A DNA stretch of 64,000 nt from a virus: the IMG/VR virus record IMGVR_UViG_3300000228_000002, positions 1 to 64,000 of that record; one strand, written 5' to 3'. Position 1 is the stretch's first letter. Every line of letters starts with the position of its first letter. Below the pieces are notes generated by a model. The model saw only the letters and a program-made list of their open reading frames with translations. It ran no database searches and was not told the DNA's origin. Positions 1-15,693 of this stretch are shown here, in pieces. Position numbers and translations under genes: made by a program.

Positions 1-45
1 ATAAGGATCGTGTGATGGACCTACTGTATATCTGGACGATTTGAT

Positions 46-2016
46 TTATGAAGGAAGCTTGGATCTGCTAGCTTTGGTCCACCCTTCTGCTACGTCCTCC
101 CAATCATGGTTTTCCACAGTCTTGGTGAACCATTTGTCACTTTCTATCTTGTCTTTAAGTTCTGCACCTTCTTTTGTCTTCAAGTCGATGTATTTACCAT
201 GTTCATCTTGAATAGAAAGGACACTCATGTCTGAGAAGAACCATGTGTTTTGACCACGGTTCCCGTCTGCATCTGCACCGTAGCCATGCTCAAAATCAAA
301 GCACTGTTCAACCTCAACTTCATAGATTTGAGGCTCGCCATTGGCATCCTCAATCTCAACATCGGAAAAGGAGTGAGTTAAACACTTATCCGATGCTACA
401 GTCTTTTTTCCAGAGATAGCCTCGTCAATTTTTGGTTGCTTAGCATAATCTTCTAGACCTTTCTGAATAAAGAGAAGGGTATCCCCTTTATCTTCGAAAG
501 TCACACCGTTATTACTGGCAAAATCAAGACAAAGCTTCTCAAGAGATTGCTCAAGAGCTTCTTGGCCATATAGCTTGTGGTAATCATTAAGATTCTTAGT
601 AAGGTTCTTAAGGAAGTTAGCCTTTAGGTTCTTTCCAGTGGCATCTTCGTTAGTTAAAAGAGTAAATTTCTTGTTGACATCAGCATTGCAAGAGTTAAAA
701 TCTTCCATTTCCTCATTTGCTTCAACAGTCTCATGTTCTACCATGTTTGAGTAGGCATCAGGCTTATACGATTTCTCAAGTGCAGCTCTCATTTGAGCCA
801 TTTTGGATTCATCTACATTCTGTTCGAAACCAACCAAGAAATCTTCAAGTGAGTAGTCAGCATTTTCGCTTAAAGGTTCAAATCCTTTATCGTGTGCAAT
901 ACACGGTATCTCAAGAGGTAAATCACCGTCTTGAATTGCACACTCTACCTGTTTGCTTGTTCCATAAACCCAAACCTCAGGTAGAATTTCTTCCCAAGAC
1001 ACTGTCTCAGAAGCTTGGACTTTAGCCAAACTACGAGAATCTTCCACGTGAAGAATGATTTTCTTATCCAGTTCTTCAATACTTGTGATAAGGAACTCAC
1101 CTTGGGCCACTGGATTATCGATAAGAACTACGATTTCAGAAGAATCGTTAAAGTGTCCGAGTGTTTGTAGGAATCCCAAATAATCGTATGCATCTTTAGG
1201 TACACAGTTATTAGCAATAATCGTAGTATAGCCATTGATAGTTTTGACTTTACAGACCGGGTAAGAATCGCCAGTACCATCATTCTGAATGATCATTGCA
1301 CAGTCGTCATCATTGGTACCAAGACCATCTGTTAAATCCTTAACAGTCATGACTGGTGTTGCAGCTTTGGCAATTTCTTCTGCCTCAACCAAGTTCCCTT
1401 CTACGTAAACAGCTGAATTGTAGCTCTCTTCAAGAGTTTCTCTCATAGCTTGGAGTCGATCTTCATCCGATTCGGCCAAGTCTGCAAAATTTGCAAGCTC
1501 GAAGTTCGGTTCATCACTTCCACCATTGTACCCTACTCCACCGTAAATCATTGGGAGTTGGCAGATAACACCGTCCGAAATGTGTGCCCAGACATCAACT
1601 TGTTCTTGTGTTCCGTAGATTTCATTTCCTTGATCATCAGCATGCCACATTGGGGTAGAGGCAGTAGCTTCCTGACCCTTCACCAGTTCGTTAGTGGCAT
1701 TCTTTACCATATCTTTAAATTGCTCGGACCCGAGGAAATCCTCGAAAGTGTGGTAATTGCAACCACCAAGAAAATCCTCGCCAAAACCATGTTCCAGATT
1801 TTCTTCATCACCCTTATTGCACACCTTTACGTGAGCAGTAAACCAGGCAGCTTTATTTCCAGAGAAGAACTTCAATTGTATCTCATCGGAAACACTCTCT
1901 TCCATATAAGAGTCACTCAAAGTAGAAGGATCAACATCGTCCTCCACAGCTTTGAAGATTACTGAAAGTTCAGGATTCTCAGGGTGAGGTAGAATTTTTT
2001 CCAAGTATGTTTTCAT
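46..2016 (-). CDS. Acidic modular polyprotein (putative virion-packaged, protease-processed)
   Basis: 656 aa, very D/E-rich. Modules are separated by EATA|S, AKA|A, VQA|S, VEA|N and TVA|S. One module is internally duplicated (YGTxxQV...MRxxLExSY twice). Confidence 0.7.
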   Translation of the reverse strand: MKTYLEKILPHPENPELSVIFKAVEDDVDPSTLSDSYMEESVSDEIQLKFFSGNKAAWFTAHVKVCNKGDEENLEHGFGEDFLGGCNYHTFEDFLGSEQFKDMVKNATNELVKGQEATASTPMWHADDQGNEIYGTQEQVDVWAHISDGVICQLPMIYGGVGYNGGSDEPNFELANFADLAESDEDRLQAMRETLEESYNSAVYVEGNLVEAEEIAKAATPVMTVKDLTDGLGTNDDDCAMIIQNDGTGDSYPVCKVKTINGYTTIIANNCVPKDAYDYLGFLQTLGHFNDSSEIVVLIDNPVAQGEFLITSIEELDKKIILHVEDSRSLAKVQASETVSWEEILPEVWVYGTSKQVECAIQDGDLPLEIPCIAHDKGFEPLSENADYSLEDFLVGFEQNVDESKMAQMRAALEKSYKPDAYSNMVEHETVEANEEMEDFNSCNADVNKKFTLLTNEDATGKNLKANFLKNLTKNLNDYHKLYGQEALEQSLEKLCLDFASNNGVTFEDKGDTLLFIQKGLEDYAKQPKIDEAISGKKTVASDKCLTHSFSDVEIEDANGEPQIYEVEVEQCFDFEHGYGADADGNRGQNTWFFSDMSVLSIQDEHGKYIDLKTKEGAELKDKIESDKWFTKTVENHDWEDVAEGWTKASRSKLPS

Positions 2017-4490
2017 TATTTAACTCCATAGAACTTGAGAATTTCTTCACAAGCCTTCTCAATTTTGTCGTTTTCGTAAATTTTGTTTGTCATTTCGTTG
2101 AGTGGCTCTAGAGCATCCTCATAATCCTCATCAGGAGTTGAGTCATTACTTTGAGCCATGAATTCTACGTAGTCTTTGATAGCATCAGAACCATCACGAA
2201 GAATAGCCAGAATCTCCTTACAAGCCAGTCCACCAACGTCTGCAAGAGCCGATCTTGGGATAGCATCACCATAGTGATCAAGATATTGATTGAGACCACC
2301 ATTATACACTTCTGCAAAGAAGTCTGCGATCTTATCAAGTGAGTGCCACTTCTTGAGGAACTCTGGTGCTACTTCAAGACGATCTTGACCCTTGCACTTT
2401 TCAAGTTCATCAATGAAGATATCATAGTTGGACGATTCTGAGGCAGTTGATACATCTGCAGAAGGATTGTGACTTTCGATAAACTTCTCAAATCTGAGTT
2501 TATCCAAAGCACCTTCGCCAATTGTTTCCTTTATGGCTTTAGAAACTGAATCCAGGTTTCCACCCTCCATTGACTTGTTGGAAACCATGTCACCCAGATA
2601 GCTACCAGCTTGTGAGTCCAGGAAGTCACGGATGACATTTTCCGTATAACCAGTCTTATTGGAAATATAATGAACTGTTAGTGTGAAAGCATTGCTAGCA
2701 TCGTCATCAGATAAGCTAAACGGAGCACCGTTCAAAGAACCGCGGAATCCCCATCCTACATTCTTAGACTTGGCATCCTCATCAGATGAAGAAGTAGCCA
2801 CAGTAGTAAGGTCGGACTCAAGAACCAACACTTTAGGGTTGTTCTTGTTGTAGTCTGCCTCTTTAGGGTAAACCATTATCTCGAACTGATCTGTCTCTTT
2901 GTTGTAGTGAACGATGGAATAGAAAGCATTCTTGAACTTTTTAAGCTCTGGAATTGAACCTGCATCCTTCTCAAATTCTTGGATAGTGAATTCTTCTTCC
3001 TCATTAGAATACTTGTTCTCAAGGAAGTCTTCAGCTTTCGCAACATCACCTTCAGAGTGGAATGAGTCCATAGACTCTTGGTAGTTTGCAAATAATTCAT
3101 CTGCTAGACCACTCAATTTATGTTCTTTTTCGTATCTGACTGCCAATCTCTCAGCCCCAGACATGTCCATATTTTTTGTTTCTTTAAGGTATTTTTCAGT
3201 TAGTTCAGTGATAAGCTCTTTAACTTTACCAGCCTCAGAAGTAGTAGCCTCTAGGTCAGTAGCTTCATCATTTTCGTTGATACGGAATTTAACTACTTTA
3301 CCTTTGAATTCTTTTCCTAATTCTTGATCTTTCAGGTGGAAGAATGCACTACCGTCCTTAACGAAATAACTAGCACTGTCGCTCATTCCTTCCTTGCGGT
3401 AAACCACTTTGCCAATTTTCTTATCATCAGATGCAGTAGACTGTCCGAGACATCCAAGAAGGAATTCGTTTGTTTTTTCTTTACTTTGTATCATTTCTGG
3501 AGTTAATCCGTTAATGAATTTATCTGCAGCAATGAGAGCTCTGTCATACGATACACTGTCTAGTGGGTGGGATAAGGTGAAACCAGGACAAGTTACCCCA
3601 ATCTCTTGGATAGATTCTTTGATAACATCAATTATCACTTCCTCATCGCCAACTTCGATTGAAGTCTGCTTATTCGTGCTGCTACCCATATTCTCCCATT
3701 CGTAGTCAACTGAGGCGGTAGATGTACCAATTATTTTTTCAACTATTTTGACTGCATCAGCATCGACCTGTCTGAAACTGTCGATTCTGTCAAGCCATTT
3801 TTTGAGATAACTCTTAACAAGTGGTCTAGCATCTTCACCTGCTTTGAGGTCGAAAATGTCGTCGAATAAGCTATCATCTCCGATTATTTCGTATGCATCT
3901 GGCAATTCTAAATAATCACCTTTTTCGTTTTTCACTACTAACCAAGGCTTGCTCATTAGCTCTTTCAGTTTAAGAGCATTTTCTTTGCTACTGAAAGGAG
4001 ATGACCACATACCTGCTGCAGCCTCATCTGGTTTGATTTCTTCCGCTTTCTTATAGAAAATCTTGGCTACACCACCAAGTTCAAGGACCTCTGCAGCCTT
4101 AGCTCTACGAATACATTTCTCATAGCTGTTAGCATTTTTGAAAGTGTTAGCCATATTTTGGGCTAATTTATGCATCTTGATTTCGTCGCCATCGGCTTTA
4201 TCACGAAGATCCTCGATTCTTTTGATATCCTTGTCACCAGGTTCTAGTCCTTTGACATCCCCATAACCTGATTCGGATTTAGAAAGAAAATCTTCTGCTG
4301 TTTGCTTAATCTTCTCAGCTTCAGATTGATCTTCAGTGTATACAATTATGTACCCATCGTCTTCCAATGAAATGTCGACCTCTGTAGTGTCGTAAATTGC
4401 TTGGAATAACTCCAATGTGGCATCACTTCTTGATGGTAGAGTAATTTTAAAGGTATCTTTTCCGAATTCTTCCATTCTCAACTTAGACAT
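2016..4490 (-). CDS. Acidic modular polyprotein with C-terminal DMP19/DUF4375-like module
   Basis: Likely start MSKLRM at 4490 (GGAG RBS, just after the upstream stop) rather than 4580. Linkers STA|S x3, SEA|G, AAA|G. C-terminal motif FFAEVYNGGLNQY. Confidence 0.7.
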   Translation of the reverse strand: MSKLRMEEFGKDTFKITLPSRSDATLELFQAIYDTTEVDISLEDDGYIIVYTEDQSEAEKIKQTAEDFLSKSESGYGDVKGLEPGDKDIKRIEDLRDKADGDEIKMHKLAQNMANTFKNANSYEKCIRRAKAAEVLELGGVAKIFYKKAEEIKPDEAAAGMWSSPFSSKENALKLKELMSKPWLVVKNEKGDYLELPDAYEIIGDDSLFDDIFDLKAGEDARPLVKSYLKKWLDRIDSFRQVDADAVKIVEKIIGTSTASVDYEWENMGSSTNKQTSIEVGDEEVIIDVIKESIQEIGVTCPGFTLSHPLDSVSYDRALIAADKFINGLTPEMIQSKEKTNEFLLGCLGQSTASDDKKIGKVVYRKEGMSDSASYFVKDGSAFFHLKDQELGKEFKGKVVKFRINENDEATDLEATTSEAGKVKELITELTEKYLKETKNMDMSGAERLAVRYEKEHKLSGLADELFANYQESMDSFHSEGDVAKAEDFLENKYSNEEEEFTIQEFEKDAGSIPELKKFKNAFYSIVHYNKETDQFEIMVYPKEADYNKNNPKVLVLESDLTTVATSSSDEDAKSKNVGWGFRGSLNGAPFSLSDDDASNAFTLTVHYISNKTGYTENVIRDFLDSQAGSYLGDMVSNKSMEGGNLDSVSKAIKETIGEGALDKLRFEKFIESHNPSADVSTASESSNYDIFIDELEKCKGQDRLEVAPEFLKKWHSLDKIADFFAEVYNGGLNQYLDHYGDAIPRSALADVGGLACKEILAILRDGSDAIKDYVEFMAQSNDSTPDEDYEDALEPLNEMTNKIYENDKIEKACEEILKFYGVK

Positions 4491-4491
4491 A

Positions 4492-5079
4492 TTAACTCCG
4501 TGCGGATTTTGATAAATAAATCTTATAGAACAGTTTTGATGCATCATAGAAATCACTAGGTGCAATCGTTTCCTGTCCAAGAATTACTCTCAATTTAAAT
4601 GGGCTCTGCCCTAGTACAAATTTGAAAGCATGATAAATTATCTCAGAACAATAAAATTTGTCAATGTTCGAGGTATTAATCGAGAAGTCGTATGGCTTAC
4701 CTATTTGTCTACTGCAAAAGTCCACTGCCAACCATTTCTGTTCATCCGTCATAAAGTTAGGACGAGAAACAGCACAATAGTCTTTACCAAATAGAAACCA
4801 AGCTAAGCTGGTCTCTACTACTCCGTGGGTTGTTGCTTCAATTACTTTACCATTTCCGTCATATATGGCAACATGACCCCAGAATCCAGGAATGAAAAGG
4901 TTCGAAAGTTCTCCACGTGTTCTAGTGGATATTACATCCCCAACTTTGAGAACTGTAAGCATATGCTCATAGTCTGCCTGTTCTATTCTCTTTCTGCTGA
5001 ATGGCATATAAACTTTTGCAATTCTTTGCGAAAAGAAAGATGTCACTTTAAGTAGATTTCTCTGAATCCATGATTTCAT
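4492..5079 (-). CDS. YiiX/YebB-like permuted papain-like (NlpC/P60) amidase
   Basis: Motifs GDVI, WGHVAIY, VIEAT, GKPYDF and FYCSEII, with His before Cys (permuted order). Confidence 0.85.
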   Translation of the reverse strand: MKSWIQRNLLKVTSFFSQRIAKVYMPFSRKRIEQADYEHMLTVLKVGDVISTRTRGELSNLFIPGFWGHVAIYDGNGKVIEATTHGVVETSLAWFLFGKDYCAVSRPNFMTDEQKWLAVDFCSRQIGKPYDFSINTSNIDKFYCSEIIYHAFKFVLGQSPFKLRVILGQETIAPSDFYDASKLFYKIYLSKSARS

Positions 5080-7424
5080 TTAATTACTGCCTTGTCTATG
5101 GTAGGTTTGCTAACCTTGTCCGAATGTGGGTATACTGCTTTGGCTCTATAGCCGTAAGTTTCAAAGTCTTCTAATTCCTTGCCTTCAATAACCTTGATTG
5201 GGATAGACATATTCAATACTATAGCAGTGTTGATTCTATGTTGTCCGTCCAATGCATACAGAGAATTTTTCCACTTGACCACCATTGGTTCAAGGGTTGC
5301 TTTAATAATTTTCTCTGCCTCTTCGTGGGAGACGGGTTCTCTGTCTGAGTGATCAAAAAACGTTTCATCGTGATTGGTGTGGATCTTTTTCAATTGTTCA
5401 GGAGTCATAATAACAATATCTGCACTGTCTATTAGATCGTTCAAAAAATCTTGGCCAACGTTGAAATCGGTTCTTCTCTCTAGGTGGTTGAAGCCATCCT
5501 TATGAGTAGTATCTTCTGAGGCAGTGGCCTCAAATTTCTTGTCCATTTTCATTTTGTCCATTACGATAGAATTGACCCTTACTTTGGATTTTGGTTTGAG
5601 TCTGATTTCACACTCTCCATTTCCTCTAGGGTGAATCCAGTGTTCAATAGTCTCTGCCCAGTCAACGTTTGATTCCTCTGCAAGTCCTTCCAGTACGACT
5701 AATTTTTGACTCTTGTCACCCCAGTAGGTAGACACTTTGTCTTTATCCCAAGTCCAGTATATACCAATATCTTTCTTGTTGATCTTGTTCTCATCATTAA
5801 TTCGGATGCCTCTGTATATAGGCTTACCGATAATATTTTCCAAGTCACTTCTCAGTTCGGATTCATTCTTGATCGGATCGATGAAATTGGAATAGACACC
5901 GTTTTTGTAATCTTCTTGTACCTTCTGTAATGCCTTCTCAAACGAAGAGCTAGCATAGGCAAGCTTCGGATCTGTCTCTTTGAAAGTGTTGTCGTTGATG
6001 TCTTTATACCTGACCTTGTCGAATTCCTTGGCTTTATCCAGGAAATCCTTAGCTTTCAGATTGACCTTAATACAACTAACATCTTTCTTTTCATCGAGGT
6101 TAAGGTTTGCCAGCCACTTGTGGTGACCATCCAATATGTAATTGTCACTAGACACCAGTAGGGGCTTCTTCAGCTTCTCTTTATCGGGACCCATCAACTG
6201 AACTTTGCCCATGTTGAATTCGTTCTGAGTAGGCTTCAGTTTGAGTGGAGATATTTTGACTTCCTTAACTTCAACCCCTTCCTCTTTAAGGAACTCTATG
6301 AATTTCTCAAAGTGCTTCTTCTTGATCTGAGGCATGTTACGTCTTGGAATACCAAGGTTCTTATCCTTATTTGGTATTTCTAGTGCAACAGTGGTGGGTC
6401 TATTTGTGATGAAGGCTTTATCTACGAAAACGTCAACGGTGCTATCCAGTTCCAAATACCCACTAAGGTAGGCTTTGATCTCTTTGTAAGCTTTCTCATT
6501 GGCTTCTTTAACGTGGACTTCAAGTATAGACTTTCCTGGTTCATTGTACTTGTACACACGACCTATGTTGACCATATCCATATTGGATAAATCTTCCAAC
6601 ATGTCGATCATGGCCTTTCGTTGTCCAGGTTCAGTAGAGAGCTTGAACTTGAACTCTCTTTTTGATGTAGAGGCAAATGAATTTGTCCCCACGTCGAAGT
6701 CACTTGAATAATTTTGAAGACCTTTATCGATCTCGGAAGAATGATTACCAAATAAATATCGGTACGAATCCTGGACATCAAATATGTTGCTTTCGCCTTT
6801 CTCTCTTTCGATGTGTCTGTCCAAGAAACCCTGTTGCTCACGTTCAGTTAGCATCTTAGTTAGAATACGATAGAAATAGTCTTTGTCAATAGAATTGTAG
6901 TATTTGTTTCTAATGTACTCTAGGTTTCCAGATTCTGTTAGTGTTGGTTTCTTGTCAAACTCTTCCAACTGCTCACGACTGAATTCACCTGCTCCATACT
7001 CGATCAGATTGTACAAGGAAACAGAGGCTGCAGTAGGATAGGCATCGATCCATTTGCTTCTAGTCAGACCTTTTGGATAACGGATCATGCGACTCATAAA
7101 TCTGAAGTCTTTATTTCGACTTCTGTTCTCCAGGAATCCAAATTCTTTGTACCATTTGATAAGTTTGTTTGTTTTGATTTCAGATGGGCTAAGTACAATG
7201 ATTTTCCCGTTGTCGTCGGCCCACTTGATGAGCTTATTCATTAAGGCAGTTCCGTAGCCCTTTCCTCTGTATTCTTTTGCAATTTCTACTAGCTTGAGTT
7301 CTATAGCATTTCTACCGGGGTAATCGAAGATGTCCAAATATGGATAGCCTTTTGGTCCTTTCTCCAAGTATTCGTGAAATTCCTTTCTCAAATCATCCTC
7401 AATGAAAGCATGAACTGTACTCAT
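5076..7424 (-). CDS. Modular polyprotein: GNAT + two ParB/Srx-like + ADP-ribosyltransferase-like modules
   Basis: GNAT: EYRGKGYGTALM...WYKEFGF. ParB-like: LKPTQ...ILDGHHKW and ALDGQHR. ART-like: IYRGI...GIYWT...ECEIRL. Modules are bounded by x-x-A|S linkers. Confidence 0.75.
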   Translation of the reverse strand: MSTVHAFIEDDLRKEFHEYLEKGPKGYPYLDIFDYPGRNAIELKLVEIAKEYRGKGYGTALMNKLIKWADDNGKIIVLSPSEIKTNKLIKWYKEFGFLENRSRNKDFRFMSRMIRYPKGLTRSKWIDAYPTAASVSLYNLIEYGAGEFSREQLEEFDKKPTLTESGNLEYIRNKYYNSIDKDYFYRILTKMLTEREQQGFLDRHIEREKGESNIFDVQDSYRYLFGNHSSEIDKGLQNYSSDFDVGTNSFASTSKREFKFKLSTEPGQRKAMIDMLEDLSNMDMVNIGRVYKYNEPGKSILEVHVKEANEKAYKEIKAYLSGYLELDSTVDVFVDKAFITNRPTTVALEIPNKDKNLGIPRRNMPQIKKKHFEKFIEFLKEEGVEVKEVKISPLKLKPTQNEFNMGKVQLMGPDKEKLKKPLLVSSDNYILDGHHKWLANLNLDEKKDVSCIKVNLKAKDFLDKAKEFDKVRYKDINDNTFKETDPKLAYASSSFEKALQKVQEDYKNGVYSNFIDPIKNESELRSDLENIIGKPIYRGIRINDENKINKKDIGIYWTWDKDKVSTYWGDKSQKLVVLEGLAEESNVDWAETIEHWIHPRGNGECEIRLKPKSKVRVNSIVMDKMKMDKKFEATASEDTTHKDGFNHLERRTDFNVGQDFLNDLIDSADIVIMTPEQLKKIHTNHDETFFDHSDREPVSHEEAEKIIKATLEPMVVKWKNSLYALDGQHRINTAIVLNMSIPIKVIEGKELEDFETYGYRAKAVYPHSDKVSKPTIDKAVIK

Positions 7425-7591
7425 TCTATAACCTCAATATTATCTAAATCTTCGGATGTAACGTGGTAAGACTTATCGGTATTCTTCTCGATATTCTTCT
7501 CGGAGATTATGGTATGATTTTCAGTGGATAAAACAACCACCCCAAATACACCACCATACTTAACAGAGGAGCCAACAGGTATTAAACACAT
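7421..7591 (-). CDS. Small hypothetical protein (56 aa; below the ORF-track cutoff)
   Basis: MCLIPVGSSVKYGGVFGVVV...; its stop overlaps the ATG of the next gene (ATGA). Confidence 0.55.
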   Translation of the reverse strand: MCLIPVGSSVKYGGVFGVVVLSTENHTIISEKNIEKNTDKSYHVTSEDLDNIEVIE

Positions 7592-7624
7592 ATTACTAAA
7601 AAATAAGGTTCATAAAATGGGAGA

Positions 7625-7894
7625 ATGAAATCGGAAGAAGATTACAAGTGGTATGATGAGAGAAATCAGGAAGGTCGTCGTCCTTCTATAAATCACCGTG
7701 GTTTAATGCCTAAATGTTTTAACTGTAATGGAACATATCAGAGTGGGAAGTCAGATAGAGAAGGACAGGTTCTAGTAACACATCCCAGAAACTCCTGTCC
7801 TTTCAAGAAGAGTATTTACGGAAAAGATGAGTTGGAGTGTATAGCACAGATAAGGGAGTCAAACGAGGCTATGCTCAAGAAGAGGACTACTTAG
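7625..7894 (+). CDS. Hypothetical protein with CxxC motif
   Basis: GGAG RBS; CFNC...HP..SC. Confidence 0.55.
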   Translation: MKSEEDYKWYDERNQEGRRPSINHRGLMPKCFNCNGTYQSGKSDREGQVLVTHPRNSCPFKKSIYGKDELECIAQIRESNEAMLKKRTT

Positions 7895-8063: not shown

Positions 8064-8092
8064 AAACCGCCCTTAGTTTAAATTTTTCCAGA

Positions 8093-8680
8093 ATGAAGCT
8101 AGTCAAACCAGGCAATTTACAAAATATTCTAACAGTAGTAACCTCGAACGTTGGGGAACGAAAGTTCAACCTGACCGAGATTCAATGTCCAGTGATCAGT
8201 GGGTTCAAATACTGTAAGTGGTGTGCCAAAAATCCAGTCTATGGTCAGAAACAGTATTGCAGTGAAGATTGCAAATTCTCTATCTATTGTTTCTGCTACC
8301 CTCAGACGTTCCCTGCTACCAGAGTATTACTGGAAAGACAAGGTTTCTCCTGCTCCACTTGTAACTATAGCTACATTGATGCCATTGAGAAAGCTATAGT
8401 AGATTGTAAGAAGCTCGAACCAAATCTAGAGTGGGATGTAAATGCCGAGTGGATAGTTAGCACAGCCAAGAAGTATATCCCAGATGAGAGAAGAATAGAA
8501 ACCGATCACATCATAGCTATTAGCAATGGTGGTGATAGCTTCGGTCTATCAAATGTTGAGATAAAGTGTAATAGTTGTCACAAGAGCAAGAGTAGTGACG
8601 AGTCCCGTATACGAAATAAAGAACAGAATATGTATAGCGGGACTCGTAGCACTTATAAGAAAGTTCGGGATATGAATTAG
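8093..8680 (+). CDS. HNH endonuclease with zinc ribbons
   Basis: CKWC...YCSEDC, CSTC, ETDHIIAISNGG...NVEIKCNSCH. Confidence 0.85.
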   Translation: MKLVKPGNLQNILTVVTSNVGERKFNLTEIQCPVISGFKYCKWCAKNPVYGQKQYCSEDCKFSIYCFCYPQTFPATRVLLERQGFSCSTCNYSYIDAIEKAIVDCKKLEPNLEWDVNAEWIVSTAKKYIPDERRIETDHIIAISNGGDSFGLSNVEIKCNSCHKSKSSDESRIRNKEQNMYSGTRSTYKKVRDMN

Positions 8681-8955
8681 TAGCCTAGGGCCTTTTTAAC
8701 AGGACCCTCTTCAGACGGAGTGTCTTTAGTCATTACGACAGAACTAGCTGCTGCATCTTGAGGTTTTTCAAATTTTTCTGCGTCTTCTGGATTTTGACCG
8801 TGCTCGAGGTTGGTAGCCTCGTCCTTCATGTTTTCAAGAGCTACTTTAGCTCTATCTAGGTCTGCTTTGGCGATTTTTCCGCCTTTAACCCAGATACCGC
8901 ACTTGACTAAGAAGTCAATTACTTCGTTCTTCGACATTTCACTAGCTGATTTCAC
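8677..8955 (-). CDS. Hypothetical protein (possible head-associated; KSA|S and AAA|S motifs)
   Basis: GTG start coupled to the upstream stop; GGAGG RBS. Confidence 0.55.
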   Translation of the reverse strand: MKSASEMSKNEVIDFLVKCGIWVKGGKIAKADLDRAKVALENMKDEATNLEHGQNPEDAEKFEKPQDAAASSVVMTKDTPSEEGPVKKALGY

Positions 8956-9140
8956 TAAGCCTCCAATTCAGCCTTCAGGGCATCGATGGCCGCTTGAAGA
9001 GCTGTTTCTGCAGATTCAATAGCAGTTACACTAGTTAACTGTAAAGATGCTGCTTCAATCTTAGCACTATGCAACAACGTCATTGATGATTTCAATTGAA
9101 CCATAATTTGTCGTTTTTTGTATTGTTCTAAAGTTTCCAT
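8955..9140 (-). CDS. Small helical hypothetical protein
   Basis: 61 aa, coupled in an operon, amphipathic helices. Confidence 0.55.
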   Translation of the reverse strand: METLEQYKKRQIMVQLKSSMTLLHSAKIEAASLQLTSVTAIESAETALQAAIDALKAELEA

Positions 9141-9147
9141 ATGACCC

Positions 9148-9567
9148 CTATTTATTTAGCTTCAAGTTAAGTATCTCGTTCAGAGCTTCTTGATAAGATA
9201 TCTCACCCTTACTTAAACGACCAAAAATAAGACCTTCCAACTCTGCAGTTCCGATGCTCTTATGCTGAGGCCACAAATTTTGTTCCTCGTTGGAGCCACC
9301 CATGAATAGTGGGACCAGATGGTCTATAGTGTAGTTCCCCCTATCACCTTCAGGTATCTGGTACTTGTTGTAAATCTTATTACGAGTGGCGCTGGACACG
9401 TTTCTATTGCATACTGCCACTTTGTTCGCATATCTAATCTCTCTTAATTCAGAGGACTTTTCGGTACAAAAATGTGGATAGTTGAAACGGGAATCTGGCT
9501 TTACGGGATAGGCAAAAGAAAGATTCAGTGTTAGTAATGAAGTGGTTAGTATTAATAACAATTTCAT
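9148..9567 (-). CDS. Secreted HNH-family nuclease
   Basis: N-terminal signal peptide (MKLLLILTTSLLTLNLSFA); IDHLVPLFMGGSNEEQNLWPQ. Confidence 0.75.
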   Translation of the reverse strand: MKLLLILTTSLLTLNLSFAYPVKPDSRFNYPHFCTEKSSELREIRYANKVAVCNRNVSSATRNKIYNKYQIPEGDRGNYTIDHLVPLFMGGSNEEQNLWPQHKSIGTAELEGLIFGRLSKGEISYQEALNEILNLKLNK

Positions 9568-9608
9568 ATATCTCCTAGATTAGTTTTAAGAAAATTAAGA
9601 GGTTCCTT

Positions 9609-9764
9609 ATGAAACTTAAAGACAACTCCATTGTAAGACATCCGAAATTCGGAAATGGTAAAGTCAAGCATTTCTCTTCAGAGAAAGTCATCGTAGACTT
9701 TGGCAAATTCGACATCACTTTTGAACCGAGTCAGGCTAATTCAGAACTTGAAGTTATCGGTTAA
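9609..9764 (+). CDS. Stand-alone Tudor-like mini-protein (51 aa)
   Basis: VRHPKFGNGKV...VIVDF resembles the PcrA/UvrD C-terminal Tudor domain; AGAGG RBS; not in the ORF track. Confidence 0.6.
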   Translation: MKLKDNSIVRHPKFGNGKVKHFSSEKVIVDFGKFDITFEPSQANSELEVIG

Positions 9765-9765
9765 T

Positions 9766-9957
9766 ATGGCTAAAAGAATGAATCTTAAGCGACTTCGGGC
9801 AATGAAAGATTCACACAGTGGTGAACAGCAAGACTATCGTTTTGAGAAACCGCAATATCAAGACCCTCTCACTAGAGATTTAATTAACGCTAATAAAGCC
9901 GCCGCCAAAATGAAGAGAATGCACAAGAAATTGGGTAGAAAGTTTAGTAAAAAATGA
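9766..9957 (+). CDS. Small basic hypothetical protein
   Basis: MAKRMNLKR...; start lies 1 nt after the previous stop. Confidence 0.55.
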   Translation: MAKRMNLKRLRAMKDSHSGEQQDYRFEKPQYQDPLTRDLINANKAAAKMKRMHKKLGRKFSKK

Positions 9958-9983
9958 GGAACGCTTATTACAGCCGTTCCTCA
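9955..9983. terminator. Hairpin between convergent genes
   Basis: TGAGGAACG...CGTTCCTCA, 9-bp inverted repeat. Confidence 0.55.
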
Positions 9984-10008
9984 GACCTCTGCGTACGACC
10001 TGGTACAA

Positions 10009-10722
10009 TTAGTTAAGGATTTCTCCGTTTTTCTTCATTTCTAGGTAAACTTCGGAACAGATCGTACCAACAGCATATGGAACAGAGGCGTAAGATTTGG
10101 CAGACGCATGGCCATACCCAATTTTGTGCATGTGTTCATGACAGATAGTACCAACTATACCCGAGTCCTGACGTGTATCAAAATTCTTGTAGTTAAACCA
10201 AATTGTTTTCACTGTTTTGAAAGTCCAACCAAGCACTTTACCGGAATTAGAGTCCCACTGATACTGGAGCTCAACCTTATAATTGTTACACTTGTTGAAA
10301 ACCTCTGAGGATGCTCTGATCTTCTGATATACGGTTTCGTTAGCATCCTTGGTATCTGCAAATTGTGCCTTTCCTTTATACCAAGCACCCAATACTCTGG
10401 CTTTAAATTCCTCACTGTTCATGACTATCATTGAATAGTTGGCTAACTTCTTTACCCTTGCCATCCTAACTTCTGTAGTGTGTTGATTTGGAACGAATTG
10501 GATATCGTAGTCAATGTGCCCTGGATCCGAAATGTCACAAACGGATTCTACTGGCGTTGGTACTGGTACAGTTGGTACTGGGGGTGTAGGGACTGGTGCC
10601 TCAGTTGTTGGTACCGGAGTGGTTGGGACTGGTTTCGGTGTCGGTTTAGGTCTCCAAGATCCCATTGATAATGCAGTATTAGATAGCAAGAGTGTAACGA
10701 TTATGGTCGATAGAATTTTCAT
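10009..10722 (-). CDS. Secreted zinc metalloprotease-like protein with Pro/Thr linker
   Basis: Signal peptide, PTPKPVPTT repeats, HEHMHKIGYGH (HExxHxxGxxH), SVPYAVG. Confidence 0.75.
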   Translation of the reverse strand: MKILSTIIVTLLLSNTALSMGSWRPKPTPKPVPTTPVPTTEAPVPTPPVPTVPVPTPVESVCDISDPGHIDYDIQFVPNQHTTEVRMARVKKLANYSMIVMNSEEFKARVLGAWYKGKAQFADTKDANETVYQKIRASSEVFNKCNNYKVELQYQWDSNSGKVLGWTFKTVKTIWFNYKNFDTRQDSGIVGTICHEHMHKIGYGHASAKSYASVPYAVGTICSEVYLEMKKNGEILN

Positions 10723-10745
10723 AATTTCTCCTTGTGTGTTACTCT

Positions 10746-10780
10746 AATTTAACTCCTGAGGAGTCGAATAGTGTTAATTT
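10746..10780. promoter_or_regulatory. Divergent putative late promoters (GTTAAWTT) flanking palindrome ACTCCT-G-AGGAGT
   Basis: Motif on - strand at 10746-10753 and on + strand at 10773-10780; palindrome at 10752-10764. Confidence 0.4.
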
Positions 10781-10799
10781 GTGAGTTAGGGGAAAAGCA

Positions 10800-11513
10800 A
10801 TGACTACTGTTTACTTTCAACAACCGTTAAACTTCGTAAACTTTGATGTGGACGGAAGTGACAACTTGAGAAGAAGTAATCTTTTCAATAAGAATACCAA
10901 AGTGGTCGTTATCGACCCTACGGTTTTTTCTCCTGCTAGTATTTATTCTGAGGCTCAGGTAATAGCACAGCAATCAGTATTTAGTACACACTATCTATAC
11001 CCTGCTGTTAAACAGTTGGATACTGCATGGGCCAATGATGGATGGAACCTTACCAGTGATGCAACATTTAAGGCTCAGTTGAAAACATGGGCTGATAATA
11101 ATCTTGTACTAGGGTCTTTGATAGCTCCAATGGGGTATAATCTTAAATTGTCTCGTAGCATTGAGTATCAGCCAGAACCTGAATTCACGTTTGATAACAG
11201 TGGTTTCTACACATATACTTATAATAATGGTACTGGTGTAGTTACATATGAAGTTGGAGCTGATCTTTCAGGAGTTTCAATTGGGAATGCTTTCAGAGAT
11301 TCCAATGGTGTTTTCTATGATGTCATTGCAGTTAGTGTGATCAATGGAACTGTAACCATCAGAACTATACCTGGGAACACAATACCAGTCTCAATAGGTA
11401 CAGAGAACAACTCGAATCTCGATGGTTCTATATTTACTCTGGTTTTCTCGGAAAACCCTACTTTCTACACGATGGCTTTTTTCTATCCAGGAAACCAGGG
11501 TACTCCCCTTTAA
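10800..11513 (+). CDS. Virion structural protein sharing a domain with the large tail/fibre proteins
   Basis: YTYNNGTGVVTY...DLSGV..GNAFRD matches segments of the ORFs at 29655 and 34583. Confidence 0.6.
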   Translation: MTTVYFQQPLNFVNFDVDGSDNLRRSNLFNKNTKVVVIDPTVFSPASIYSEAQVIAQQSVFSTHYLYPAVKQLDTAWANDGWNLTSDATFKAQLKTWADNNLVLGSLIAPMGYNLKLSRSIEYQPEPEFTFDNSGFYTYTYNNGTGVVTYEVGADLSGVSIGNAFRDSNGVFYDVIAVSVINGTVTIRTIPGNTIPVSIGTENNSNLDGSIFTLVFSENPTFYTMAFFYPGNQGTPL

Positions 11514-11824
11514 CGTCCTGATCTAACTGATCCACCAGCTTCGATTGAACCGCCGACATCGTCGCAGTTGACTGATCCACCTGCTCTAACGGAACCTTTA
11601 ACGTCGTCGCAGTTGATTGATCCGCCAGCATTTATGTCACCTTCAACCGTTCCATTGACGTTGACCGACATGTCAGTGTCGATTTTCCCCACGTTTCCAT
11701 TGATGGTGATTTGGCCAGCATTAGCTAAAGATATCTCATTACCATCAACTATGACCTTCCCATTTCTGATAGTGACACTACCCGAAGAAGTTATAGTCTG
11801 ACCATTTATCGTGACTGTATTCAT
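11510..11824 (-). CDS. Beta-helix repeat protein (bactofilin/DUF4097-like)
   Basis: Repeats of G(D/S)(I/V)xAGGS(I/V)NCDDV. Confidence 0.65.
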   Translation of the reverse strand: MNTVTINGQTITSSGSVTIRNGKVIVDGNEISLANAGQITINGNVGKIDTDMSVNVNGTVEGDINAGGSINCDDVKGSVRAGGSVNCDDVGGSIEAGGSVRSGR

Positions 11825-11851
11825 TTTACCCCCTGAATAGGTTTAGGATGT

Positions 11852-12055
11852 TCATATTTCTTTACTGCTCAACAGGCCACTGTAATACTCTTCCCAATCA
11901 CCGAGATGCTCGAAATCCTGATTCAGGTCCATTTGCTGAACTCTCTCAGGCCCAGTCGGATAGTGAACCACCACTCTAGTGTCATTAACTCTCTCAACCT
12001 TGAGAACTTCGTTGGACTCCTTGTGGAGATATGCTCTTTCACTCTTCCTTGCCAT
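11852..12055 (-). CDS. Small SH3-like hypothetical protein
   Basis: GGGAG RBS; 67 aa. Confidence 0.55.
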   Translation of the reverse strand: MARKSERAYLHKESNEVLKVERVNDTRVVVHYPTGPERVQQMDLNQDFEHLGDWEEYYSGLLSSKEI

Positions 12056-12143
12056 CTTGGCTCCCTTTAGAAACTTTTATTAAAGTCGTTGACTAGTTTA
12101 GCTATGAGTATATCGGTTTACGAGATGGAACACCACGGTTTTA

Positions 12144-12986
12144 TTACTTTGACTCTTGGTAGTTTAGAGTCTGGACGAAATTGATTTCGCTGTTCAGATC
12201 CCTGTTGTTTGATACCAAATTCTTTCGATATTGATCTTTCTCATCTTCAGGTACGTAATGGTACTTGAGGATTCCATCTTCCAGAAGCTCTGGTAGTCTT
12301 GCTGAGGCAAACCCATAGATTGCTTGTCTTTCCTGATTTAACAGACTAGTAAGCTTTGCAACGGCCTCGGAACCCAATTCTTGGGCTAGTTTCTTGGAAA
12401 TGAATGTGATTCTAGATATAACCATGTGGTTAGAAATCTCGACTTCGATTTTCTTCTTCATTTCTTCATCTAGTTCAGTGTAACCAGCTACTTCATATGC
12501 TAGAATTGCGTGAGGTAGAGGCATAGTTGCACCAGCACTAACATGATCGATAAAGTTTTCTTCCTGGATCAATGGGATTTCGTTGTACAGGTGAACTGTT
12601 TTTGACTTTTCCTTTACTACGTAGCAGAAACCACCAGCATATGAATAAGTCAGGGGGAGAATTGTGTCAGTTTCCAACTCTTTAATACGAAGTTTAGTAT
12701 GGTCAGAATTGATATAGCTTTCAACGTGTTCATTTGAACGGAAGATGAATGGGAATTCCCACACTTTGAGCCAGGATTTTTCAGTCAGAGCCAACAATTG
12801 GGAGCTTGGGACCTGATAGATGTCCAGATCACCATTATCAATTTCTTGGAGAGGATTTTTCGGATCTTGATCTACAATGATTAGTTCAACTTCATACCCA
12901 GAATTAGCAAGATATTCATTGAACTCTTTTGCAATTCTCTTGTATTCTACTAGAGTATTTAGGACTGCCCATTTGATCTTCTTCAT
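12144..12986 (-). CDS. TRAP DctP-like solute-binding-fold protein lacking a signal peptide
   Basis: GDLDIYQ...LKVWEFPFIFRSNEHV...PLTYSYAGGF resembles the DctP family. Confidence 0.55.
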   Translation of the reverse strand: MKKIKWAVLNTLVEYKRIAKEFNEYLANSGYEVELIIVDQDPKNPLQEIDNGDLDIYQVPSSQLLALTEKSWLKVWEFPFIFRSNEHVESYINSDHTKLRIKELETDTILPLTYSYAGGFCYVVKEKSKTVHLYNEIPLIQEENFIDHVSAGATMPLPHAILAYEVAGYTELDEEMKKKIEVEISNHMVISRITFISKKLAQELGSEAVAKLTSLLNQERQAIYGFASARLPELLEDGILKYHYVPEDEKDQYRKNLVSNNRDLNSEINFVQTLNYQESK

Positions 12987-13067
12987 CCGTTATCTCCTAA
13001 AGCAAGGTCCATTAACCGGACCCAGGTACTGTTTCTACACATGGCAGATCAGTTATATAAACTTTTA

Positions 13068-13283
13068 TTATTCCATCAACTTTTTTGCAACATCTTCTAG
13101 GTCCGCATCTTCTGGCTTGTACACCACAAGATAATTACCGTCTAGAACATCGTGTTCCTCAGGGAACATTGTGACACCTTCGCCACCCAATTCTTGGGCT
13201 TTCTTATCAAGTAAGGCATCTTGCATTTCGATTTCATCGTCATCGGCATAATCAGAAAAGCTTCTTGCTCCAAAGGATTTCAA
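13068..13283 (-). CDS. C-terminal module of the upstream polyprotein, in the +1 frame
   Basis: Overlaps the end of ORF 13252-15693 at CTT TTC TGA T; the joined module resembles the last module of ORF 55328. Confidence 0.5.
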   Translation of the reverse strand: MKSFGARSFSDYADDDEIEMQDALLDKKAQELGGEGVTMFPEEHDVLDGNYLVVYKPEDADLEDVAKKLME

Positions 13284-15693
13284 CTGTGCTTGCCTTAACT
13301 TCGTATTCTTTCTTAAGAGCTTTAAGTTCTTTTTCGTCTTCTTTCTCTTGTTTTTTGATCAGCTTCTCTTGATCTTTCAGAGCTTTCTCGCCAGCTTCAA
13401 GAAGTTCACCTTCCTCTAGCTTACGGTTAGTGTACTCTTCAGAGAAGTGAGTGAATGGGAAGAATTCTTTACCATCTACTGAGTATTCAGCTGACATAAG
13501 CTTTCCACAGATTTCGTCTGTCTCACATTCAGTATTGCCTGCAATGCCAAGTTTCACTTTAAGTGATTTGTCTTTGAGGAAAACGTACATGTCGATAAGA
13601 GAGATAGAGTCGTTACCATTCGAGTATGTAGACTCAAAGTCCAAGTCTGCTGACTCTGAGAATTTCATCTCAAGTTCTTTCTCCCAATCGCCAGAAACAC
13701 TGCCAATCTTGGAGTTAATCAACTCGGCTTTCTTAATAACGTCGTTCATGGCTATAACCTTTGTTGAAGCAAAAGATTTGTTAAAAGTGTGTGGTGCCAC
13801 TACCAACTTAAGGGTTTCGAATTTCATTTCTGACCCATCAGCCATTTTAATCATATCATCTTTAAATTTTTCGGCATCTTTCTTAGTCTTAAAAAAGATT
13901 GCATCTTTAATGTCATTTGTTGTTTTGATGTAGTTGTTCTTAAAGGACTCTACATACTCAGATTTTGTTCCAACAGTTTGCTCAATAGTCCAATATTTCA
14001 CACTTACTGGTCTTGAGGCGGTAGTATTGTGAGTGAGCTTCTTAACTCTATACTCACTAGGAGTATGCTTCCTACCATATTCATCCCCTAACGTCTCCAG
14101 TTGAGTGTAGCAGTGGGATGCAATTTCTTCCACCTCTTCATCGGTAGCATCAGTGGTAAGTTCAATTGTGATAAGGTAGTCATTCATTGGTAGTGATGCC
14201 TTAGTCGAGGCATTGACAATGGTTTCATAATGAGAGTAGTTTGGTCTATCATTAATAACATCCACAACCCAAATATAGAGAGTTCCATTCTTATCGACGC
14301 ATGAAAGTTCACGATTTCCATAAGTGACGGATAAATCGCCCACATAGGTTTCGGTAGGCTCACCCTCTTTCATTACATCTTCAATACTGATTTCTTTTGA
14401 GATTTGCTCCAAGTATCCTGGGGCCAATTCATCCTCAGTCGAGGCATTGACATGTTTGAAGAATTGAACTCTCTTCTCAGTCTTACTCACTCTTTCTTCG
14501 CTTGGCTTTTGTGTACCATACCACTCCAGAACCTTAGAACCATCACTTGATACAAAAGCCCATTCCTTGCGGTCGGTATTTTTGTTATGTTTTTGTACCA
14601 ATTTGGCAATGGATTCTTTGTTATTTATGACGATATATTGACTATTTTTGGAATCATAATATCCAGAATCATTGTGACTATTTTGTCTGTCTACTTGCTG
14701 TCCCTCAGCCACAGAGTCCATTTTCTTTTGGAACTTAGAGAATGCCGGGTTTCTTTCCCCGTCGTAGATATCGAAGTTGTTGTATACCATGACATTCAAA
14801 CATCTTGCAGCATCCTCTCCTAGATCAGCTGCAATGTTGGCTGCTTCTTGGATTTTTTGAGCCTGAAGCTTATCAAACTCTTGTGCATTATTTGAGCGTA
14901 GCACAGGTAGATTGTCTACATTTTCCTCATAGATTTCCATATCGTCTTCGATATCAACCATGTGATCATGTGCTGCATAGTAGAATAGGTATGAAGCTAG
15001 ATATTGCCCTGCCTCTGGGTTCAGATGAGAGAAGGCATCCGATATTTTCTGAAGTTTTGGAAGGTCGGCATCGATACTTGCAGTTGATTTGGCTTGAGAT
15101 TCATGATACTCTTTGACTTTATTGAAGTATTCACCCAATTTTTTGATTAACGATTCAGGGCTCATTTTGTTAGAAGGAAATTTCACACCCCTTACACCGG
15201 TAAGGAGTTTTGCCTTTACTGATTTTGCATCTTCAATGTGATTTTCTTGGTAGTCGTCATCCCAGCCTTCGATGCGGAAAATGGTGTGAAGTGGATCGTT
15301 GTGGATAATTCCGTGCTCCCACTCATCTTTATTCTTGCCTAGTGCAAAGTGAACGTAGACATCTTTAGATCCAAGAGGCCCACTAGCTTGTACACCAACA
15401 TAAGAATTAGGGAAAATGCTTGTGATAACTTCACGTACTTTATCTGCCATATCTTGGTTAAGGATAGCAGCAGCTTTATCTAGGTCTTTAACCATGAAGC
15501 CCTCTACGAACTCCCAGAACACTCTGTCATCATTGAACATTTTCTTTTGATCTTGGTGTTCGAAATTGCCATCGTAGAAGCAGTATTTAGAGAAAGCTTC
15601 GTCAATCATTTTCTCGTTTTCTGCATAGTAGCGTTCTACCTCTGCATCAATATCTGAATCTTTAGAAATGTTTGAAGAATTAGCTTTGGACAT
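13252..15693 (-). CDS. Acidic modular polyprotein with ~10 x-x-A|S linkers
   Basis: KSTA|S, HVNA|S, IVNA|STKA|S, TTA|S, SFA|S, EVKA|S; contains an EKRVQFFKH module. Confidence 0.75.
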   Translation of the reverse strand: MSKANSSNISKDSDIDAEVERYYAENEKMIDEAFSKYCFYDGNFEHQDQKKMFNDDRVFWEFVEGFMVKDLDKAAAILNQDMADKVREVITSIFPNSYVGVQASGPLGSKDVYVHFALGKNKDEWEHGIIHNDPLHTIFRIEGWDDDYQENHIEDAKSVKAKLLTGVRGVKFPSNKMSPESLIKKLGEYFNKVKEYHESQAKSTASIDADLPKLQKISDAFSHLNPEAGQYLASYLFYYAAHDHMVDIEDDMEIYEENVDNLPVLRSNNAQEFDKLQAQKIQEAANIAADLGEDAARCLNVMVYNNFDIYDGERNPAFSKFQKKMDSVAEGQQVDRQNSHNDSGYYDSKNSQYIVINNKESIAKLVQKHNKNTDRKEWAFVSSDGSKVLEWYGTQKPSEERVSKTEKRVQFFKHVNASTEDELAPGYLEQISKEISIEDVMKEGEPTETYVGDLSVTYGNRELSCVDKNGTLYIWVVDVINDRPNYSHYETIVNASTKASLPMNDYLITIELTTDATDEEVEEIASHCYTQLETLGDEYGRKHTPSEYRVKKLTHNTTASRPVSVKYWTIEQTVGTKSEYVESFKNNYIKTTNDIKDAIFFKTKKDAEKFKDDMIKMADGSEMKFETLKLVVAPHTFNKSFASTKVIAMNDVIKKAELINSKIGSVSGDWEKELEMKFSESADLDFESTYSNGNDSISLIDMYVFLKDKSLKVKLGIAGNTECETDEICGKLMSAEYSVDGKEFFPFTHFSEEYTNRKLEEGELLEAGEKALKDQEKLIKKQEKEDEKELKALKKEYEVKASTVEILWSKKLF
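14203..14452. repeat. 16-bp direct repeat AGTCGAGGCATTGACA (14203-14218 and 14437-14452)
   Basis: Exact match. Both copies encode VNAST linkers, 234 nt (78 codons) apart. Confidence 0.85.

Follow-up and report, generated by a model that had tools for sequence, protein, structure and literature searches.

Recurrent Ala-Type Seams Between Shuffled Modules in the Polyproteins of a Jumbo Phage Contig, and Their Possible Role as Processing Sites

Introduction

The linear viral record IMGVR_UViG_3300000228_000002 of IMG/VR (122,158 bp), whose first 64 kb constitute the window analysed here, encodes on its minus strand six proteins, designated polyproteins A to E and protein F, which are strings of small modules separated by a short recurrent sequence, the seam. 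These seams are very probably module borders maintained by selection, as argued by the mosaic structure of homologous proteins, by free-standing homologues that begin at the P1' residue, by the coil that AlphaFold places at the seams, and by the existence of seam motifs specific to each lineage. That the seams are also cleavage sites appears reasonably probable. CheckV estimates the completeness of the 122,158-bp contig at ~49%, which implies that the source genome is that of an uncultivated jumbo phage of roughly 250 kb.

The explanation favoured here, which taken as a whole we regard as evenly balanced between right and wrong, is that A-F would be shuffled strings of cassettes, each of them a small protein acting against the host or in its takeover (GNAT, ParB/sulfiredoxin (Srx)-fold, ART-like, DMP19-like and many of no known type) and bounded by a seam of the form [A/S/T/V/L]-x-Ala | [Ser, less often Gly, Asp, Glu, Thr]. 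A maturation protease encoded by the phage and acting in trans, with a specificity resembling that of assemblin or of signal peptidase (small P3, Ala at P1), would recognise the seam and by cutting there would separate the modules. The preferred candidate for this role would be the prohead protease, acting inside the procapsid, and the resulting pieces would be packaged and would leave the head along with the DNA at ejection, the precedents being T4 IP/Alt and the ejection proteins of phiKZ/SPN3US. Cleavage of the seams by a prohead protease within the capsid is conceivable, falling somewhat short of probable, and the module pieces would then be injected into the host.

The Seam Motif

The six open reading frames (ORFs) correspond to polyprotein A (46-2016, 656 aa, isoelectric point (pI) 4.3), B (2016-4490, 824 aa), C (5076-7424, 782 aa), D (13252-15693, 813 aa, pI 5.0), E (52356-53819, 487 aa) and protein F (55328-55888, 186 aa), all of them located at the initially annotated coordinates, on the minus strand. 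Their modules comprise 60-200 aa, and A-E carry 3-8 modules each. Taking [STAV].AS as the strict motif and within-protein residue shuffles (n=2000) as the null, 19 strict motifs are found in the six ORFs against 4.17 +/- 2.01 after shuffling, and no shuffle out of 2000 reaches 19. All of them lie within A-D, with polyprotein D showing the highest density in the contig (8 strict sites, 9.8 per 1000 aa), and E and F contain none. The rest of the contig has 58 strict motifs in 34,685 aa, from which 6.3 would be predicted for A-F (Poisson P = 3e-5), so that the motif is 3.0-fold denser in A-F than in the remaining proteome, in line with the enrichment that had been anticipated. Among 17 relatives belonging to the window lineage there are 56 A|S sites against 13.1 +/- 3.5 in shuffles (0/300 reach 56); related sequences inherit their sites, so that these are not independent and the z-scores overstate independence.

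With regard to its composition, Ala at P1 is the constant element of the seam consensus, P3 is small or beta-branched, and P1' is mostly Ser, with Gly, Asp, Glu, Thr, Asn, Leu and Ile also present. Where seams could be delimited without recourse to the motif, most have Ala at P1, the exceptions having Glu or Thr. Of the linker form [S/T/A/V]-x-A|S originally proposed, the Ala at P1 has stood, Ser being the commonest of several residues at P1'. The seam codons are heterogeneous (GCT/GCC/GCA combined with TCT/TCA/TCG/AGC/AGT) and no DNA word is conserved; conservation is therefore exerted at the amino-acid level, and a fixed DNA hexamer, such as a restriction site, is ruled out as the cause of the seams.

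Mosaic Relatives, Free-Standing Modules and Structural Models

The description of these ORFs as strings of modules joined by a recurring linker is borne out by their relatives, which are mosaics. Polyprotein D has three (P0001, P0003 and P0004). The near-identical P0001 contains an exact tandem duplication of the 78-aa module situated between two VNA|S sites of D, and an identical 15-nt direct repeat, GTCAATGCCTCGACT, encodes both VNAST seams of D (window 14206-14220 and 14440-14454). P0003 is devoid of the 82-83-aa module located between TTA|S and SFA|S, an ATA|S remaining in its place; it also has a 64-aa insert between KA|S and RA|S and, instead of the HVNA|S module of D, a different one ending in KATA|S, and in P0004 the modules of D follow a different order. 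Polyprotein C has 12 mosaic relatives in the window lineage (P0006-P0017), among which P0008 is without the 144-aa ParB-like module, the gap extending exactly from TVA| to AYA|, and P0010 has a 154-aa module inserted at VF[A/S]|S...SVA|S. Mosaic relatives of A are P0026-P0028, and B has 87 module-level relatives in the database; the modules that B shares with P0030 and P0031 are permuted among the three, and the joints are always x-x-A| followed by S, G or A. The modules had initially been described as unrelated, and this does not hold for all of them, as A contains an internal paralogous repeat (133-215 / 350-431, E = 8e-8).

Global alignment of replaced modules yielded spurious small indels, and a clean-indel filter was used instead. 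In the 7 clean large indels so defined, 10/14 edges lie <=3 aa from 'AS', when by chance 2.5-6.1% of positions lie <=2 aa from it. Three of the other four edges adjoin TVA|L, RA|K or AAA|S, and the fourth corresponds to VFS|S, whose orthologue reads VFA|S.

The same borders are found in proteins that consist of a single module. Thus, 16/23 database matches to B 160-255 begin at query residue 160, which is the P1' residue of AAA|G, and 17/23 begin at their own residue 2-3, most of these proteins being of ~90-110 aa. P0035 and P0038 begin with MGMWSSPF and P0041 with MGIWAHPF, and all three end where B reads TSTA|S. Some of these free-standing homologues lie on ~1-kb contigs; its repetition in 17 clusters nevertheless speaks for this start being genuine. 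In the same way, the first of the two modules of protein F is an internal cassette in relatives of A: F 6-88 matches P0027 257-334 (E = 9e-16) and F 6-106 matches P0028 231-327 (E = 4e-11), the cassette being flanked in these proteins by ETEA|S and by TTA|T or TVT|S, and the Met of F aligning with the P1 Ala.

The AlphaFold model of B, obtained from a 60-row alignment (mean confidence, pLDDT, of 69.7), shows coil at all seven residues surrounding seams 159, 259, 353 and 683, which coincide with pLDDT dips; the 'AS' pairs at B 373 and 598, which do not belong to the motif, are in a strand and in a helix, respectively. In the model of C 348-782 (mean pLDDT 77.9), a low-confidence linker ends at AYA|S (C491) and ATA|S (C635) is in coil. 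In these cases the seams are placed between folded blocks, as had been suggested.

Seams and Domains of Each Polyprotein

The breakpoints mentioned below come from an automatic clustering of homology breakpoints that is noisy, module ends being poorly conserved, and multi-hit clusters alone were used. The genes for C, for a C92 peptidase, for B and for A form a single translationally coupled operon with junctions ATGA, TAA-T-ATG and TAATG, A being its last gene.

No Pfam or PHROG match was obtained for polyprotein A. Its first seam, A119 (ATA|S, 1657-1668), reads TVA|S, TVA|S and THA|S in P0026-P0028. At A335 (VQA|S, 1009-1020) the upstream module is swapped in these three relatives, the junctions being AVA|V, TTA|T and TVT|S, and at A445 (CNA|D, 679-690) it is the downstream module that is swapped, with AVA|G and ALA|G in relatives. 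Seam A541 (TVA|S, 391-402) corresponds to ALA|S, AKA|G and SKA|S, preceded by differing upstream modules, and A649 (TKA|S, 67-78) is followed by a 7-aa tail, P0026 having an extra module after STA|SKKSTA|S.

Polyprotein B starts with the ATG at 4490, the TTG at 4580 being a longer alternative offered by the ORF lister, and contains at least seven modules, the last of which is a C-terminal DMP19-like domain (PF14300 in Pfam, B 722-815, E = 1e-5). No match at E <= 0.001 was found when its model was compared with PDB by Foldseek. Seam B159 (AAA|G, 4011-4022) marks the start of the free-standing homologues described above and B259 (STA|S, 3711-3722) their end, P0037 starting at B 260-262. The module 262-355, represented in P0037, P0033 and P0032, ends at B353 (STA|S, 3429-3440), and the order of modules is permuted in P0030 and P0031. 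The following module end, B420 (SEA|G, 3228-3239), is EATA|G in P0030 and SVTA|A in P0031 and falls at a coil-to-helix edge within a low-pLDDT block. B486 (AKA|E, 3030-3041), which precedes the DFLENKY module and comes after a low-pLDDT linker (475-484), reads TVA|S in P0030, VTA|A in P0031 and KTKA|D in P0034. After B565 (TVA|T, 2793-2804) the pLDDT falls to <50 (566-579) and the matches of the next module start at 568-571. Finally, B683 (STA|S, 2439-2450), in a pLDDT block of 35, separates the DMP19-like module.

Polyprotein C is composed of a GNAT module, several short modules, a ParB-like, an ART-like and a second ParB-like module, and a conserved C-terminal tail. The GNAT (PF00583 at 37-97, E = 8.5e-9; phrog_10691 at 30-122) ends before seam C133 (TAA|S, 7023-7034), around which 10 homology breakpoints accumulate (121-135); its equivalents in relatives are VNA|S, ANA|S, ATA|N, ATA|W, TTA|S, ATA|G and HTA|E, continued by differing modules. 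Two borders with Glu at P1 follow: C164 (LTE|S, 6930-6941), absent from the initial list of linkers, with 4 breakpoints at 161-165 and reading LTA|S in P0013 and TTE|S in P0009, and the probable seam C211 (KGE|S, 6789-6800), with 5 breakpoints at 203-213, whose DVQDSYRYL sub-module comes after AAA|D in P0012. Seam C251 (SFA|S, 6669-6680), the point of the 154-aa insertion in P0010, reads SFA|S, VFA|G, VFA|S or SVA|S in relatives. The ParB-like module (phrog_2859 at C 348-492, E = 7.6e-31) lies between C347 (TVA|L, 6381-6392) and C491 (AYA|S, 5949-5960), which are the left and right edges of the deletion in P0008, the low-confidence linker that ends at C491 comprising model residues 127-144. 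The placement of linkers at the edges of recognisable domains in the initial annotation is thus upheld for the GNAT and for this module. C635 (ATA|S, 5517-5528; coil at model residues 288-292) corresponds to AIA|E, AVA|E, AIA|Y, AVA|L and AVA|Y in relatives, and P0008 does not contain the next 124 aa.

The C model matches ParB N-domain and sulfiredoxin structures (Foldseek, best E = 3.6e-4), and a 149-aa free-standing homologue of the ParB-like module (C 333-481) from Ackermannviridae bears, as annotation only, the name 'unknown structural protein [Dickeya virus Limestone]', which is the one hint that such proteins might be delivered into the recipient cell. The region C 492-635 resembles ART-clan clusters (DUF4765/EspN, DRAT, NarE, Mod) with scores of 0.93-0.82, obtained from language-model features only, and Pfam gives nothing for it at E <= 1; the seams claimed on both sides of an ART-like module are there, and its identity is that of a language-model look-alike. 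Ten isolated modules searched against Pfam at E <= 1 gave as sole match a weak ParBc_2 (E = 0.028), and most modules of A-F have no known family. With regard to the end of the protein, a conserved tail, A[VM]YP.S....PT[IV]D..V.. (C ~760-782, window 5079-5150), closes C, P0006-P0008, P0011, P0013 and P0014 whatever modules precede it; its pLDDT is low, and it could be a packaging or targeting signal.

In polyprotein D, seam D76 (AAA|I, 15463-15474) divides D 12-76 from D 77-200, which are split in P0004 at KKAAA|S. The linker VQA|S initially proposed at D103 has to be discarded, since it lies inside a module and is not conserved, P0003 having IST|S and P0004 ISKGS at this point; the seam is instead D76 (KAAA|I). 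D205 (STA|S, 15076-15087) is STA|N in P0003 and DTAE|S, followed by other modules, in P0004. The module upstream of D417 (VNA|S, 14440-14451) is the one replaced in P0003, and this seam is also the left edge of the duplication in P0001, whose right edge is the double seam D495 (VNA|S) and D499 (TKA|S) at 14194-14217, where the 64-aa insert of P0003 (KA|SL...RA|SA) is found. D559 (TTA|S, 14014-14025) and D642 (SFA|S, 13765-13776) bound the 82-83-aa module missing from P0003, which in P0004 occupies another place. D801 (VKA|S, 13288-13299), followed by a 12-aa tail, is kept in P0003, which ends in VKA|SE.

Polyprotein E consists of a ParB-like N-terminal module, an LNLKQ module, a GNAT (PF00583, E = 2.2e-11) and a C-terminal module, and shares modules with relatives of C (matches to P0009-P0014 and P0017). 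The label of the N-terminal module was assigned by reading, from a DGTHR motif, Pfam being empty for E 1-135 (E <= 1). Seam E136 (LSE|S, 53409-53420), with Glu at P1, has 4 breakpoints at 136-142, and the LNLKQ module that it precedes comes after HTA|E in P0013 and after TTE|S in P0009. This module ends in E at E209 (LVA|S, 53190-53201; 2 breakpoints at 207-216) and in P0009-P0012 at AAA|S, AAA|K or AAA|D. E339 (ATA|E, 52800-52811; 3 breakpoints at 344-354) precedes the C-terminal module, which in P0017 is located after SEA|S.

Seams Around the Same GNAT in Other Lineages

A profile of the GNAT module identified 24 further IMG/VR loci. The marine giant-phage fragments, whose completeness CheckV puts at 2-30%, have x-x-Glu ahead of the GNAT in 12/12 distinct contexts (LDE, VTE, VGE, LNE, FNE, VNE), and NE[SRG][VI]NE usually comes after it. 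The loci with marine seams, [LVF]-x-E| and NE[SRG][VI]NE|, are among L008-L026 and L031 of IMG/VR. In the marine ORFs [LIVF]NE occurs 37 times against 7.6 +/- 2.8 in shuffles and [STAV].AS 5 times against 8.2, without enrichment; the window lineage shows the reverse pattern, with 14 [LIVF]NE against 16.1. In P0015 and P0016 the motif is x-N-P (8 vs 2.6; 1/300 shuffles reach 8), and GC-rich ORFs of 2000-3100 aa (L010, L028, L030) may use a K-[TQ]-A| seam, as K[TQ]A occurs in them 9 times against 4.3, a less clear case. A seam that is fixed within each lineage and differs between lineages around the same domain is the product that would be expected of a co-evolving trans-acting recogniser. The marine [LVF]-x-E| seam resembles known head-protease sites, the motif of the T4 head protease being L/I-x-E. 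The head protease of SPN3US also cuts after Glu (AXE-) (PMC10052503).

Taking these motifs together, it can be proposed, as a tentative generalisation that we are inclined to doubt more than to accept, that giant phages carry an early anti-host arsenal as 'cartridges', polyproteins built from small proteins of the free-standing type, in which the seam (A|S, [LVF]-x-E| or x-N-P) would be an address code co-evolving with the capsid protease of each lineage. Among the 24 records of other lineages searched for S77 peptidases one match was found, in a record with a free-standing GNAT; none was found for S78 in 5 such records, and ClpP gave in 5 records one ordinary-looking ClpP, most of the records searched for proteases being 2-31% complete.

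Genomic Setting and Candidate Proteases

The contig encodes a large terminase (100178-103078) and a portal (103472-105547), the latter ~33% identical to the portals of Dickeya, Erwinia and Vibrio jumbo phages, as well as a helicase, a primase, a UvsX-like protein, SbcCD, a sigma-like factor, collagen-like fibres and four paralogous radical-SAM proteins arranged in two pairs (window 16687-17724 and 18001-19074; contig 71029-73073; phrog_1802, E = 1e-23 to 1e-48). Two very large ORFs on the minus strand, 29655-34523 and 34583-38491 (1622 and 1302 aa), presumably encode virion proteins; the first alone has PHROG matches, to a short stretch common to tail-fibre and head-decoration families. No major capsid protein was recognised in the contig, several large ORFs being unassigned, and no upstream promoter word shared by the polyprotein genes and structural genes was found when searched for. 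A nucleotide search of window positions 1-16000 against phage records gave no match, and hence no cultured phage; no matches were found in phage records for the proteins B and C92, and no relatives in viral-contig scans queried with D, C and P0009, a metagenome scan yielding one 3.3-kb contig only. The contigs that hold relatives are of 155 kb (near-identical to the window contig, at about 99%), 40 kb, 17 kb, 377 kb and 324 kb.

A 701-aa protein encoded next to the portal (contig 105660-107765) has a conserved C-terminal domain, Cys-rich zinc-ribbon-like motifs and a long acidic stretch rich in Pro/Glu/Ala. The homologous protein of Dickeya phage AD1, gp140, which bears the label 'ATPase', is flanked on one side by the head maturation protease of that phage and on the other by its major head protein, and for this reason the 701-aa protein is probably a scaffold or internal head protein. 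In AD1, the gene for the head maturation protease adjoins gp141 (L033 6510-7637), a protein that combines an HELAH motif with a KMPT-N domain (E = 8.8e-30) and is a second candidate, of metallopeptidase type, for virion maturation in that group of jumbo phages.

Within the operon, between C and B, there is a gene for a permuted papain-like peptidase of family C92 (YaeF/YiiX; 4492-5079, minus strand, 195 aa, PF05708, E = 1.3e-20), with stretches that resemble, by reading and without alignment, the conserved His and Cys regions of the family. Between C and D, on the minus strand, are encoded a small protein (9148-9567) with an HNH-like motif and, by reading, an apparent N-terminal signal peptide, and a zincin-like metallopeptidase (10009-10722) with an HEHMH motif, a Pro/Thr-rich linker and a weak SprT-like match (E = 0.0027), which was rejected as the processing enzyme because, having an apparent signal peptide of its own, it appears to be exported.

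Weighing of the Explanations

Several observations weigh against cleavage by a prohead protease. Neither peptidases of the S78, S77, S21, S49 and LonC types nor relatives of the AD1 head protease or major head protein are found in the 122-kb contig, which had been anticipated for the window in the case of the protease; this says little, half of the genome being missing from the contig. The scaffold-like protein contains 4 strict sites and ranks below the 25 proteins in which 'AS' most exceeds what their own composition predicts. The polyprotein genes adjoin radical-SAM and HNH genes and are situated outside the portal-terminase block (100-108 kb), and no N-terminal capsid-targeting sequence shared by A-F could be seen by eye. 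Regarding the motif itself, D103 matches it without being a seam, and P1 is Glu in three window seams (C164, C211, E136) and Thr or Ser in a few relatives, which would mean either a loose specificity or that some seams are not cut.

It has to be considered, moreover, that the seams might never be cut, being instead the preferred inter-domain joints of intact multidomain polyvalent proteins, where shuffling would be tolerated only at these points and the joints inherited with the cassettes. Several well-studied polyvalent proteins are indeed transferred full-length, N4 vRNAP, ArdC and TraC1 travelling uncut (PMC5512222), which also counts against the favoured scheme; the coil at the seams is what any linker would show, and the direct repeat flanking the duplication in P0001 indicates that some rearrangements had a cause at the DNA level. 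However, this explanation, which we deem unlikely while giving it real weight, leaves unexplained the near-invariant P1 Ala and small P3 across non-homologous modules, the variety of the seam codons, the replacement of the seam by different fixed motifs next to the same GNAT in other lineages, and the free-standing homologues that start exactly at P1'.

Another alternative, quite improbable in our opinion, would have the polyproteins expressed in the ordinary way and cut at the seams in the cytoplasm, without a capsid stage, by the C92 peptidase of the operon or by some other protease of the phage or the host. Cleavage after small residues is frequent among viral papain-like proteases, the C92 gene is translationally coupled between those of C and B, its product has the His and Cys region look-alikes, and the polyprotein genes are not in the head module. 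Nevertheless, the C92/NlpC-P60 superfamily is known mainly for cell-wall or lipid amidases, so that the gene itself might encode an effector; D, E and F share the seams and are outside the C92 operon; and there is no C92 relative in phage records or within ~10 kb of the polyproteins in 26 other loci. Embedded peptidases that would release the domains have been proposed for polyvalent proteins (PMC5512222), which speaks for this alternative. As for the idea that the motif derives from composition, or from having chosen the ORFs once the motif had been seen, it is true that they were picked in that way and that, relative to the remaining proteome, the enrichment of 'AS' is equalled by that of several acid-rich dipeptide patterns; however, composition is controlled by the within-protein shuffles (0/2000), and independent relatives, indel edges, free-standing proteins and AlphaFold converge on the same positions, leaving this idea extremely improbable and close to refuted.

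Comparison with Known Systems and Significance

Polyvalent proteins contain 2-15 conflict-related domains, including GNAT, ART and DdrB-like ParB, with extensive mosaicism; their packaging and their injection together with the DNA have been predicted, as has, for some of them, release by peptidases, C-terminal assemblin-like ones included (PMC5512222). That A-F fit this concept in architecture and content is well supported, since the GNAT, the ParB/Srx fold and the ART-like lead match the known repertoire (PMC5512222; also PMC7824862). In both cases one polypeptide, encoded by a phage or, among polyvalent proteins, also by a conjugative element, carries several unrelated domains, A-E being encoded on a contig with terminase and portal genes. 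The differences are also clear: the release proposed for polyvalent proteins in PMC5512222 relies on embedded peptidase domains, whereas A-F show a recurrent short seam motif; the zincin MPTase, their commonest hub domain, was not found in A-F; the modules of A-F are mostly small (60-150 aa) and equal to free-standing proteins, unlike those of polyvalent proteins; and 'DMP19', to which a domain of B is similar, does not appear in the text of PMC5512222.

A full-text literature search, supplements being outside its scope, retrieved neither a recurrent Ala-type seam that splits phage polyproteins into units of free-standing size nor a seam motif that changes with the lineage. If the seams are cut, an Ala-type phage maturation protease would be predicted, the phage literature searched having shown Glu-type motifs only; one gene could deliver many separate effectors; a simple rule would be available for splitting 'dark matter' phage polyproteins into functional units; and the switch of seam around the same GNAT would offer a tractable case of protease-substrate co-evolution. 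If the cartridge proposal is true, the specificity of the protease and the borders of hundreds of effectors of unknown function could be read from the genome sequence alone. Even if the seams are never cut, an exchange of cassettes between polyproteins and free-standing genes, similar to exon shuffling, is documented.

The sites of herpesvirus assemblin are V/L/I-x-A|S, those of the polyprotein processed by birnavirus VP4, cut at several of them, are (S/T)-x-A|(S/A), and signal peptidase I recognises A-x-A. The seams of A-F follow the same logic as the assemblin and VP4 sites, with a small or beta-branched P3, Ala at P1 and Ser at P1'. The assemblin likeness noted in the initial annotation is therefore retained for the P3-P1-P1' pattern and confined to the level of sequence, no S21 or LonC having been found in the 122-kb contig; the likeness to both is one of site only, hosts and virus groups being unrelated.

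The closest precedents for the favoured scheme are found among phage heads. T4 gp21 trims IPI-III and Alt inside the prohead (PMC9958956), and in T4 (IPI-III/Alt) as in SPN3US/phiKZ (gp245/gp175) the capsid holds anti-host proteins, an ART among them, which the prohead protease cuts and which are ejected into the host, the cleavage consensus being short and some propeptides having several sites (PMC9958956, PMC10052503). Known head-protease motifs end in Glu (AXE- in SPN3US, PMC10052503), whereas P1 in A-F is Ala. Finally, in T4 and SPN3US the protease trims N-terminal propeptides from single proteins, whereas in A-F it would putatively release whole functional modules from one precursor.

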